NCBI GenBank assembly: GCA_964016885.1
Contig: OZ024741.1
Coordinates: 395,002,001-395,066,000 of the forward strand
Direction: 5' to 3'
Source of the DNA: Eledone cirrhosa
Lineage: Eukaryota
Length of the DNA: 64,000 nt
The notes beneath the pieces were generated by a model, which was not told the origin of the DNA, did not search any database, and saw only the letters and a program-made list of their open reading frames with translations. Numbering within the stretch: position 1 is the first letter of the stretch; each line of letters begins with the position of its first letter. This document shows positions 921 through 24,295 of the stretch, one piece after another. A program made the position numbers and the translations under genes.

Positions 921-1004
921 AAGTTATATTTAAAATTGTTGGGTTACAACTAGTAAATATTTATAACTGATATAAAAGCACTCGACAAATACTTGGAGTA
1001 TATT

Positions 1005-1379
1005 TACAATATTAAATAAATGGAAAACTATATTTATAAAACCATATTTATTTCATTATATATATTTCGGGGATATCATATTAACAATATGCTATGCCTT
1101 CATCAGACAAAATACAATATAAACAGTTTTATAGATAAATATATTCGACATACCGTAATAAACATGAACTTCATTTGAAGAGGTTCACTCTAGCAGTGAA
1201 CCTCTTCAAATGAAGTTGATGTTTATTACGGTATGTCGAATATATTTATCTATAAAACTGTTTATATTGTATTTTGTCTGATGAAGGCATAGCATATTGT
1301 TAATATGATATCCCCGAAATATATATAATGAAATAAATATGGTTTTATAAATATAGTTTTCCATTTATTTAATATTGTA
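1005..1379. mobile_element. Fold-back element (185-bp arms, 5-nt loop), probable inverted pseudo-LTR insertion of a Penelope-like element
   Basis: 1005-1189 is the reverse complement of 1195-1379 (one mismatch seen), loop ctagc; contains a hammerhead motif; unique extension 921-1004. Confidence 0.8.
1264..1340 (+). ncRNA. Type I hammerhead ribozyme-like motif (mirror copy on - strand at 1044-1120)
   Basis: CTGATGA 1278-1284, GAAA 1316-1319, palindromic stem III ATATATAT, AUA triplet, stem I atattgtattttgt/atgaaataaatat with G-U pairs. Confidence 0.7.
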
Positions 1380-2410
1380 TATGTATATATATATATATAT
1401 ATGTATATATATGTATATGTATATATATATATATATATGTATATATATATATATGTATATATATATATATGTATATATATATATATATATATATATATGT
1501 ATATATATATATATGTATATATATATATATGTATATATATATATATGTATATATATATATATGTATATATATATATATGTATATATATATGTATATATAT
1601 GTATATATATATATATATGTATATATATATATATGTATATATATATATATGTATATATATATGTATATATATATATGTATATATATATATGTATATATAT
1701 ATATATATGTATATATATATATATATGTATGTATATATATATATGTATATATATATATATATGTATGTATATATATATATATGTATGTATATATATATAT
1801 ATATATGTATATATATATATATATGTATGTATATATATATATGTATATATATATATATATGTATGTATATATATATATATATATGTATATATATATGTAT
1901 ATATATATGTATATATATATGTATATATATATGTATATATATATATATGTATATATATATGTATATATATATGTATATGTATATGTATATGTATATATAT
2001 GTATATGTATATATATATGTATATGTATATATATGTATATGTATATATATGTATATGTATATATATGTATATATATATGTATATGTATATATATGTATAT
2101 GTATATATATATATATGTATATGTATATATATGTATATGTATATATATGTATATGTATATATATATATATGTATATGTAAATATATGTATATGTATATAT
2201 ATATATATGTATATGTAAATATATGTATATGTATATATATATATATGTATATATATATATATGTATATATATATATATGTATATGTATATATATGTATAT
2301 GTATATATATATGTATATGTATATATATGTATATGTATGTATATGTATATATATGCATATGTATATATATGTCTATATGTATATGTATATGTATATATAT
2401 GTATATATAT
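1380..2410. repeat. (TA)n/(TATG) microsatellite
   Basis: Direct reading. Confidence 0.97.
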
Positions 2411-2413
2411 GTC

Positions 2414-21625: not shown

Positions 21626-22590
21626 AAACATATCCTCAAATGCGGAAACCCACAGGGTAGACCCTTGGTCACAGTCCTAGCGACTGAACGCAGCATCGGA
21701 TCCTTAAGGATAAAGGAAGCACTTGTTATTAAGAACCTCAGACCCCCACTTAACAACCGGGCTGAGAGAAATGAGCTGACATGGCTAATTTAACCATAAT
21801 GACCATTCACAGCCTACGGCCTGTTATATTCACACACACGCACGTATATGCATACCCATACGCATGCACACACACTTCTATATTTTACACGCACACATGT
21901 TTTTACAACCTACCACCTTTCACACCCTTTGATTTCCAGCTTCTACAGCCCACTATCTTTCACACACAAACGCACTCACACATATACATACACAGTTACA
22001 CACACACATGTATACCCATACGCTTACACACACACACTTCTATATTTATACACGCACACATATTTTACAACCTACCACCTTTCACACCCTTTGATTTCCA
22101 ACTTCTACAGCCCACTATCTTTCACACACACACACACTCACACATATACACACTTACACCTATACACACACAGTCACACACACATATATATTTACATACA
22201 CATATCTTAAGGCTTTCACACGCTAACGCACCCTCTTGATTTAACCCATTTGGTCAGTAGCTTTTGCCACAGCTTATCACGCGCACGCGCACTCTCTCCC
22301 TCGTTTAAATTTTAAATATTTTTCTCCCCATAACGGCATTCCTGTCTTAACGACACCAACACTTTCTCCGCTTGGCCTGTTTTTCCCCCCTTTTGGAACT
22401 TTTCCCCCGTTGATGGGCGTGAGCCCGAAATATTGGGATTAAAATCTCTACTACGGTAACCCTTCTACCTTTGTTTTGTTTTCATCTTTGTCTCTCTCAA
22501 CTTTCACTTTCACCTGTTTTTCCTATCTATATTTCACTTCCTACCTCGAGATTTCCTTTGCATTGTTGTGGCTTTCTTAAATACGTATTT
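21626..22590 (+). mobile_element. Nested 3' fragment of a second PLE family (GIY-YIG C-terminus + UTR)
   Basis: HILKC...LRIKEALVIKNLRPPLN...* ends 21793; ~160-bp tandem duplication 21835-22140; degenerate hammerhead 22403-22438; absent from the homologous region near 44500-45060. Confidence 0.72.
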
Positions 22591-23787
22591 TTATATATAT
22601 ATATATATATATGTGTATATATATATATATGTGTATATGTTTCTCTATTTGTATATGTATATGTGTATAGGTATATACCTTTTTCTTTGTATGTCTGAGT
22701 TGTGTGAGAGTGTAGTGGTGTTTGTATGTATATACCGATATATAGATGCGTAAGTATTTGTCTGTATGTATGTATGTATGTCTGTATGTATTTGTGTGTA
22801 TATATAGGTATGTATGTGTATATCTGTATGTATATAAGTATGTAAGTGTATGTATATGTGCGTGTATGTGTGTATATATATGTGTGTCTATATAGTATGT
22901 GTGATTATATGTGTATGTATGTGTGTATGTATATATATATATATATATATATATATATATATATATATATATATATATATATATGTGTATTTATATGTAT
23001 GTGTGTATATGTATGTATGTGTGTATATGTATATGTTTATATATGTGTGTGTATGTATGTTCTTAGTGTGGATGTGTGTATATGTATGTATGTGTTTGTA
23101 TATGTGTATATATATGTATGTGTGTATATGTGTGTATGTATATATATATATATATATATTTTCTTGATATATTTCTTTTTTCTTTTTTCTTTTTCTTTTC
23201 TTTCCTTTTAATGTTTATTTATTATTTATTATTTTTTATTTTCTTAGTTTATAGATACATCTATATTAAGCAGTCTGCCCAAACCGTTGAATACTGACCT
23301 CTCCCCCCCTCCCACCTAATTTCTGTATCTTGATCTAAATGTGTGTGCCAGTGTTTATGTGAGTGAATTAATATCCATGTGCTTAGGATTTTTATATCCA
23401 CATATATATATGTGAGTGGGGGTGTGTGTGTGTTTGTATGTTCGTAGTTATGTGTATGTTTATGCATATACGCGCGTGTGTGTGTGATTGTACGGATATG
23501 TGTGAGTATGAAAATATGTGTATACACTTATTTCATATTTATGTGTCTATACGCATCTTATCTGTGCATTATAAACTTACAGAGACATTAACCTTGAAAT
23601 TTTGTATTTGCATCCATCCTTTTGGTATGCGTATACAAGTTGTGCATACATTTTGTAAATATGTGTAAGGGTAGTTACATGTATATACACACACCGAACT
23701 GCATTAAACCTTTTGTATTTTCGTTGGTCAATTTTGTTCCCAAACGGACCTGAAATTTTGAATTGTTGTTATTATCAATAAATATAT

Positions 23788-23941
23788 TTCATTATTTCTG
23801 AAGACGGCGTATATATGTGTTGGTATGTATATTTAATCTTGATAGTTTGTATAATTTTGTATAATTTTGTACATAGATCTGTTGAATATGCATGTCAATT
23901 CTAACACATATATATCCTAGAAACGATCGTTAAATAATGAA
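23788..23941 (+). ncRNA. Type I hammerhead-like motif with extended stem II (copy 2)
   Basis: ttcattattt-CTGAAGA(23798)-~115 nt-GAAA(23920)-cgatcgTT-aaataatgaa; 10-bp perfect stem I. Confidence 0.68.
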
Positions 23942-24295
23942 CTTTTTTTTGTTTAATATAAGGAACTGTTTCATTGTTTATTCATTATTTGTTTAATATT
24001 TTATCTTGACTCTGTATACCGTTTATCTTTCACCGAAAGTGATTTTTCATTACATCTCTTCTTTCCATGATATCCGGAATACATTGAGTTCTTCATACGA
24101 TTGGACACTACCGTAAACTCTTGGTAGATTTATCTACATACGTATATATATATATATATATATATATGTATGTATGTATATATATGTATGTATATATATG
24201 TATATATATATACGTATATATATATACGTATATATATATGTATATATATATATATATATGTATATATATGTATATATATGTATATATATATATAC

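Follow-up and report, generated by a model that had tools for sequence, protein, structure and literature searches.

Penelope-like elements (PLEs) are already known to carry inverted pseudo-long terminal repeats (pLTRs) and one-sided tails and to target TA repeats; PLEs of the Hydra and Neptune types and the hammerhead-bearing retrozymes are likewise published. The origin of the inverted repeats and tails is named as open in PMC8557442, PMC11167929 and PMC3846280, and the mobiliser of animal retrozymes is named as open in PMC7229834 and 10.64898/2026.07.22.740005. The latter two propose PLEs as the mobilisers on the basis of motifs, co-occurrence and pLTR similarity. The closest biochemical system is a PLE of the anole, which nicks and extends both strands of AT-rich DNA in vitro (PMC11167929). 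Synthesis by this enzyme, a predicted dimer, begins at two internal positions on the RNA, which delimit the tail. The start used did not differ between strands in that study, which left later steps open. The results presented here concern a stretch of 64,000 nucleotides (nt) from Eledone cirrhosa, hereafter the window, at positions 395,002,001-395,066,000 of contig OZ024741.1 within a 3.0-Gb assembly (GCA_964016885.1). The window harbors five inverted insertions in (TA)n, and nearly every two-armed copy of the same families examined elsewhere in the genome consists of one tailed and one tail-less fixed end. The reading favoured here, at a probability of roughly 0.6, is that the five structures are PLE ends (families A, C and E) or hammerhead units (families B and D) inserted into existing (TA)n, and that two-armed copies are one sense RNA copied twice from two fixed starts.

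Layout and end pairing of the inverted insertions

The window is mostly (TA)n with scattered G, broken up by many mobile-element pieces. As proposed in the initial annotation, it contains five inverted repeats with a shared layout, in which one arm halts on TA and the other continues into a tail. The fixed outer end of the tail-less arm, on the TA tract, is designated P, and the fixed outer end of the tailed arm is designated T. The families are named A (921-1379), B (near 6404-6714), C (14186-14418), D (16165-16275) and E (18070-24135), and their features in the window are as follows.

920-1004, minus strand: family A tail, the 3'-terminal 86 nt between P and T
1005-1200, minus strand: family A tailed arm, pLTR end of a putative Hydra-type PLE; hammerhead core motif at 1091-1106
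1184-1200: family A centre, a natural 17-nt hairpin
1184-1381, plus strand: family A tail-less inverted arm, P end on TA tract; hammerhead core motif at 1278-1293
6282-6359, minus strand: separate 3'-end fragment of family F, outside B
6404-6567, minus strand: family B tailed arm, unit positions 152-317 of a 317-nt unit; tail at about 6404-6428
6568-6586, no strand: 19-nt filler separating the B arms
6587-6714, plus strand: family B tail-less arm, unit positions 165-293, running into the TA tract
9245-9274, minus strand: solo tail-less end of family C
11521-11602, minus strand: solo tail-less end of family A
14186-14343, minus strand: family C tailed arm, end of a putative Neptune/Nematis-type PLE; tail at 14186-14247
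14314-14418, plus strand: family C tail-less arm
16165-16212, minus strand: family D tail-less arm, unit positions 232-280 of a 310-nt unit
16210-16275, plus strand: family D tailed arm, unit positions 246-310; tail at about 16248-16275
17536-17629, plus strand: separate 3'-end fragment of family F, outside D
18070-19384, minus strand: family E tail-less inverted arm; hammerhead motif at 18138-18275
19383-24134, plus strand: family E tailed arm, long microsatellite-rich 3' region of a putative Hydra-type PLE; initiator-like motif at 23787-23800, hammerhead motif at 23798-23935, tail at 24005-24134
21602-22591, plus strand: nested insert of another PLE-like family with its own 3' region, absent from the E copies at sampled loci L320 and L323
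41588-47221, plus strand: second family E copy, ending at P; frameshifted C-terminal open reading frame (ORF) pieces at 41610-42098 and 42083-42721

The two arms are identical at 178/179 positions in A, 121/132 in B, 77/84 in C, 34/34 in D and 840/846 in the outer part of E. The tails, measured from P to T, are 86 nt in A, 62 nt in C, 131 nt in E, about 24 nt in B and about 27 nt in D. The B and D extensions had been read as split by a microsatellite. Their supposed far halves (6282-6359 and 17536-17629) are instead 3' ends of another element, being 85-87% identical to an element end in locus L032 (family F); family F pieces gave six matches across the sampled loci, none of them at B or D loci except the window's own. 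The solo pieces at 9245-9274 and 11521-11602 do stop at the same site as the tail-less arm (P). Where four unrelated families had been counted, five were found, of which B and D are related yet distinct, with 218 identities over 333 aligned columns and a score of 214 against a shuffled maximum of 75.5. The description of several non-coding PLE-type families fits B and D. It does not fit A, C and E, whose arms can be linked to ORFs for a PLE reverse transcriptase (RT) and GIY-YIG endonuclease, unlike those of B and D. The GIY-YIG ORF at 21602-21790, formerly tied to E, belongs to the nested insert; this C-terminal piece was read by eye and has no Pfam match.

The central proposal holds up at all five structures, each of which fits insertion of PLE type into (TA)n, with one arm inverted, the 3' ends fixed and the fold points variable. 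The arms are far from single-copy, with exact motif matches numbering 3,331 for A, 2,542 for B and 25,130 for C (arms or units rather than insertions; a reversed-pattern control gave 0). Both flanks share G-over-C polarity at five of five window inserts, so the TA tract predates the insertion. Given that tandem junctions also lack TA, the tract is a target and not part of the element.

The pairing of ends was read in tail-blind and in tail-selected samples. The tail-blind A sample took, in genome order, the first 92 entries from a list of 100 matches to a 26-nt motif that lies upstream of P, in 59 loci. The tail-blind C sample combined the first 30 matches (18 loci) with 15 loci picked for nearby matches, and the tail-blind B sample comprised 42 loci from an ordered list. 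A first B sample and the D and E samples came from tail-containing queries and are unable to reveal P+P pairs. In the tail-blind samples, inverted pairs were T+P in 46 of 47 cases in A, the remaining pair being P+P with no T+T, and in 24 of 24 cases in C. The tail-blind B set held no true P+P or T+T; it yielded 21 T+P pairs by script and three more by reading, along with two copies with an intermediate end, four that were truncated or ambiguous, and one cut by the locus edge. Matches of up to 32 nt to plain microsatellite accounted for 12 'P+P' rows dropped from this set and for seven dropped from the selected set. Among the tail-selected samples, pairs were T+P in 17 of 17 in E, in seven of seven with both ends visible in D, and in 19 in B, with one T+T. 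Left out of the E count was L323, where two tailed ends lie 9.3 kb apart, one of them cut by the locus edge; this locus may represent two separate insertions or an exceptional T+T pair. If two equally used sites were chosen freely, about half of the pairs would be expected to be T+P.

The inner ends of the arms vary. Of 41 A junctions, 13 have a P arm that extends beyond the T arm in the 5' direction by more than 20 nt and six have the opposite; in the other 22, the two arms end within 20 nt of each other. In eight of the 41, the T arm has less than 30 nt in common with the P arm and is little more than the tail. The P arm also has the longer reach at 12 of 21 B junctions, and at L293 it spans 5.6 units compared to one in the other arm. 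Junctions include short overlaps, blunt joins and fillers, some of which re-copy the adjacent end. Inner ends pile up in two families. In A, 36 of 82 lie inside one 12-nt window around a TCACT motif, and in E, 13 of 26 lie on a single base, which is the A in a TCATT motif; the E joins are blunt and head to head, and ends are re-copied. The pile-ups include both arm types, and the motifs are similar to the Inr-like TCACT in the pLTR of rotifer Penelope (PMC3846280). These pile-ups are consistent with run-off of complementary DNA (cDNA) at the RNA 5' end, which would account for the commonness of short palindromes like that at 921-1379. In the window, the RNA starts predicted in this way lie near 1197 in A and at the A of the 23787-23800 motif in E. 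A search with family A listed no RNA data set that contains it, a blank with no evidential weight. No common fold was evident among the tail regions.

Variants shared between arms bear on the number of templates. In the 41 A pairs, minor subfamily alleles were common to both arms 21 times and discordant once; L145 was excluded from this count as its paired arms came from two neighbouring insertions. An origin of the two arms from two RNA molecules is disfavoured by this sharing. In addition, one of 167 A segments (L187) has an identical set of 38 sense A>G changes in both arms. Its T arm has 159 A>G compared to six T>C, with few edits after a 5' G, a neighbour pattern resembling that of ADAR enzymes. 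One of 115 C segments (L325, positions 4950-7450) has 33 A>G common to the inverted arm and the upstream pLTR and four in the downstream pLTR, with 35 A>G to five T>C on the sense strand. No A>G-clustered copy was found for B, D or E. It is likely that the L187 and L325 clusters are fixed RNA hyper-editing. If the A>G changes are RNA edits, the template was a sense RNA and both arms came from one molecule, whether by twin priming, self-copying or later conversion.

Coding and non-coding families

Families A and E are best described, from protein and RNA motifs, as 5'-truncated ends of Hydra-type PLEs whose uninterrupted RT-endonuclease ORFs lie elsewhere in the genome. For A, the best genome matches point to a 3.98-kb unit in partial tandems with an uninterrupted ORF of 737 amino acids (aa). 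The E source is L320, which has a 750-aa open frame and a 3' region matching 18070-24132 of the window. The two proteins are 45% identical, and RT and C-terminal GIY-YIG motifs could be read from their alignment, including DKT replacing DKG, a CxCx5C linker, and CxxC and CxH around a conserved E and N, without CCHH. At the N-terminal RWK position A has RWR; the L320 E frame does not cover this stretch. Core, stem II and GAAA motifs of a hammerhead were recognised in the A/E pLTR by eye and by fold. Pfam returned no family for the 737-aa or 750-aa frame, and Rfam gave no hammerhead match in A locus L010.

The assignment of A and E to Hydra follows motifs listed in PMC8557442 and not an RT tree. 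Like the Hydra clade described there, A and E have a C-terminal GIY-YIG, DKT, CxCx5C, a hammerhead motif and (TA)n targets, and they form tandem and inverted insertions with a tail at one end. They differ from the clade in length (3.98 kb and about 6 kb, compared to the usual <3 kb), in their tails (86 and 131 nt, compared to 30-40 nt), in the RWR of A in place of RWK, and in having thousands of copies. Naiad PLEs have an N-terminal endonuclease and no canonical hammerhead (PMC8557442), and Naiad was ruled out as a label since A, C and E have hammerhead motifs and carry the endonuclease at the C terminus. Part of the window, 37537-38660, matches the 3' region of another Hydra-type element, the endonuclease end of which is in L321.

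Family C is, by its motifs, the end of a Neptune/Nematis-type PLE, the two names being left undivided. C copies continue into an ORF that encodes RT and GIY-YIG and contains a CX4CxxC linker and CCHH. The full-length unit in L325 has one frameshift, and the tail falls within the first codons of the ORF. Pfam matches to RVT_1 (E 1.9e-4) and GIY-YIG (E 2.4e-4) were both below curated cut-offs. A hammerhead motif in the C pLTR was detected by motif scan and fold, and Rfam gave no hammerhead match in C locus L068. The CX2-5CxxC-type linker, CCHH endonuclease and hammerhead motif are shared with Neptune/Nematis PLEs (PMC8557442). A tail within the first ORF codons, bounded by two fixed ends, is shared with the anole Poseidon element PAc (PMC11167929). 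Unlike PAc in vitro, which showed no strand preference for either start, the inverted insertions examined here use one of each. A G-to-C difference between the C arms was considered as a fixed feature and rejected, as it is private to the window copy and 30 of 30 motif matches read C. The C ORF (L325 1357-5138, minus strand) and the E ORF (L320 1954-4203) both contain Asn/Thr-rich low-complexity stretches, which resemble the N-rich inserts of rotifer Penelopes (PMC3846280).

All B and D copies lead to head-to-tail units, of 317 nt in B and 310 nt in D, and none to an ORF; no ORF was linked to D in the D loci examined. Arrays contain up to seven units in a row, with a GC content of 32% (B) and 35% (D). 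Both have a hammerhead motif within a long stem I. The D core is canonical, and at the aligned position the B core is a U3-A8 variant, a covariation published for hammerhead cores (Cervera and de la Pena 2014, PMC4209133). Rfam HH9 gave weak matches in three of three B units (E 0.013-0.36, below gathering) and no hammerhead match was obtained for D. By their sequence, B and D match non-LTR retrozymes, a class of head-to-tail repeats of 150-450 bp with GC below 50%, a type I hammerhead and no coding capacity, which is characterised by self-cleavage and by expression as linear and circular monomers. Like animal non-LTR retrozymes (PMC7229834; 10.64898/2026.07.22.740005), they are AT-rich, non-coding tandem units, here of 310-317 nt, with a type I hammerhead motif. 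Unlike the retrozymes in the consulted sections of those two sources, where no description of inverted arms or tails was found, B and D arrays bear a PLE footprint: they lie on many contigs in TA tracts, have one inverted arm, and end at the same two phase points. Target-site duplications (TSDs) of retrozymes, when present, are expected to exceed 4 bp; in this check the B and D ends merged into TA repeats. Variants private to an insertion were present in all units (nine D, five B), in one unit (29 D, 161 B) or in some units (three D, nine B). Four D and four B cases had them in every unit including both arms, up to eight of eight units. This pattern fits repeated copying round one monomer, or a uniform source array. 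Motif and profile searches of the sampled loci for a partner element, and one genome search with the best weak match, recovered only two more non-coding relatives, and no pLTR parent of B or D was found. In the window, the inner end of the B tailed arm lies no more than 2 nt from 153/154, where the hammerhead is predicted to cut.

The two additional relatives, both retrozyme-like, lie at L160:940-1410 and in L345-L364. The L160 relative is an inverted T+P insertion and has a canonical core at the position where B has U3-A8. The L345-L364 relative is an older family with a hammerhead motif, upstream of which lies an octamer-like motif.

Mechanism of insertion and alternatives

In the favoured reading, the endonuclease would cut both strands of the TA tract, and a probably dimeric enzyme would then start two cDNAs on a single RNA, one primed at T by one DNA end and one primed at P by the other DNA end. 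Synthesis from T would displace the strand begun at P. Each cDNA would halt independently, often by running off the template where the RNA begins, at a pLTR initiator, and the two cDNA ends would be joined head to head through short homology or filler. For B and D, a PLE enzyme would act in trans on a template of circular or multimeric RNA, so that arrays are inserted as ready-made multimers. A more specific form of this mechanism is tentative, with odds a little short of even: an asymmetric dimer, in two PLE clades and their non-coding parasites, must start one cDNA per fixed site, one per cut end, and B and D are retrozymes inserted by a PLE as rolling-circle-type multimers. If true, such a dimer explains the tail, the inverted pLTR and the short palindromic stumps together.

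Twin priming is familiar from LINE-1, where a single RNA is primed by target DNA at two places and the resulting inverted insertion is joined through microhomology. The position at which the second LINE-1 primer anneals varies, lying upstream of the first, and there is no overlap between the arms. The insertions described here differ: their two starts are at fixed positions, 24-131 nt from each other, which makes the arms overlap.

Several observations weigh against two fixed starts on one RNA as the general account. Solo copies end at either site, with 12 T and three P in A (one merely cut by the locus edge) and five T and eight P in C. Flank polarity was informative at only two of 64 loci genome-wide. 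Family C has no sharp inner-end pile-up, and the initiator reading draws on a motif and a pile-up only. A 17-nt hairpin recurs at A junctions, and in six of six asymmetric cases the loop is in the T-arm orientation, although four of the six came from a query favouring it. Centres of palindromes are lost asymmetrically, which could mimic arms that are not nested. The shared alleles and A>G clusters would be explained just as well by self-copying or by gene conversion between the arms. For B and D, motif and profile searches of the sampled loci and one genome search revealed no partner PLE, and inner ends do not pile up at the predicted hammerhead cut. No hyper-edited copy was present among 187 B and 129 D segments, and no A>G skew was seen per insertion, a raw excess having vanished on per-insertion counting.

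The main rival is snap-back, in which a cDNA begun at T folds on its own 3' end and copying proceeds along this hairpin as far as P, the point at which the hairpin is resolved by the endonuclease or by microhomology to TA; later centre deletions would make the arms unequal. It accounts for the T+P pairing, for the identical alleles and A>G clusters in both arms, and for the T orientation of the recurrent hairpin loop, and the tail is ascribed to endonuclease-mediated resolution in PMC8557442. It is nonetheless unlikely. The initial annotation called the structures fold-backs; as a mechanism, fold-back is doubtful because in many copies the tail-less arm cannot have been copied from the tailed arm. 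Snap-back would require centre deletions in a large share of young copies with otherwise identical arms (13 of 41 in A, 12 of 21 in B, with L293 as the extreme), and eight A copies show almost no overlap between arms. Solo P copies do occur, one of which (L199) ends at the same pile-up base, and E junctions are blunt palindromes without a loop. The T arm is nested in the P chain at L325, and the reverse is true at L187. Far less probable is self-priming on an antisense transcript, which would yield a head-to-head palindrome and was proposed for rotifer Penelopes from palindromes at inverted junctions and bidirectional promoter motifs (PMC3846280). The insertions do share with those elements a tail at one inverted pLTR and palindromic junctions. 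Unlike the antisense template of that proposal, the template indicated here by the A>G clusters of L187 and L325, two copies only, is sense, and priming on a cut DNA target has been shown (PMC11167929).

The remaining alternatives concern the nature of the repeats themselves. It is possible, at low odds, that B and D are satellite-like pLTR derivatives seeded once or a few times and spread by DNA recombination instead of PLE reverse transcription. The missing editing signature, partner element and cut-site pile-up would be expected in that case, and local amplification through unequal crossover is discussed in 10.64898/2026.07.22.740005. However, the arrays are dispersed over many contigs with the same two phase points, TA tracts and an inverted arm with T+P ends; eight cases have insertion-private variants in all units of both arms; and the L160 relative retains the canonical core that B has replaced. 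Least probable of all are miniature inverted-repeat transposable elements (MITEs) with terminal inverted repeats, or read or assembly fold-back chimeras. Inverted arms in a microsatellite-rich, partly noisy assembly invite this suspicion, and no contig from four public runs spans the window A or B centre, a gap that carries no weight. In place of fixed-length terminal repeats with TSDs, the arms range in length from tens to thousands of nt, one end exceeds the other by a fixed tail, and the source elements encode RT. MITEs and chimeras alike are refuted as a general account. The B and C arms differ by 8%, and centres have fillers or unequal ends, which read chimeras would not produce. Public-run contigs contain arm-to-arm joints at many other A positions (one study, possibly of the same sample).

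Other repeats and implications

The window contains further repeats. Copies of a long interspersed nuclear element (LINE), presumably RTE-like, whose ORF encodes an endonuclease and RT and whose 3' end is (ATG)n, occupy 2412-6216, 8405-8556, 12485-13933, 15218-15578, 52706-55472 and 60572-62608. These copies are mostly flanked by TA tract too, and 4775-6216 and 12491-13933 are inverted and 99% identical. The end of a further multi-copy family (39 matches in sampled loci), with a U3-A8 hammerhead-like motif, is at 10962-11163 and forms inverted pairs in L032 and L275. Another multi-copy element, at 56344-56957, combines a direct repeat (56344-56407 and 56783-56846) with an inverted arm, 56711-56779 pairing with 56889-56957; on the minus strand it has a hammerhead-like motif near 56656. 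Additional repeat fragments lie in the TA tract at 9319-9735, 14683-15161, 31208-31421 and 33040-33340; the third has an inverted pair in L145 and the fourth matches a LINE-like 3' end in L111. Decayed frames at 58798-59865 resemble a pogo/Tigger-type DNA transposase.

The pairing rule, the tail-less arms with sequence absent from their partner arm, the run-off pile-ups and the edited copies were not found in the literature searched, which included few subscription papers or older Penelope work and no supplements. Nothing relevant was found there on twin priming in Penelope or on A-to-I hyper-edited Penelope copies. A PLE footprint on animal retrozyme arrays was also not found in the main texts and passages searched; the supplements of PMC8557442 and 10.64898/2026.07.22.740005 may list any of these features or the families themselves.

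Finally, the elements in the window are of known kinds; what they add is a quantitative insertion rule and a link to retrozymes, through which the two questions left open in the literature become testable. Any model of PLE insertion must produce one tailed and one tail-less end per inverted insertion. For annotation, palindromes embedded in TA repeats are to be regarded as PLE ends or retrozyme-like units, not as MITEs or unclassified repeats. The genome of E. cirrhosa, with thousands of young, near-identical insertions and apparently intact elements, offers predicted RNA starts and matched candidates for enzyme and template.

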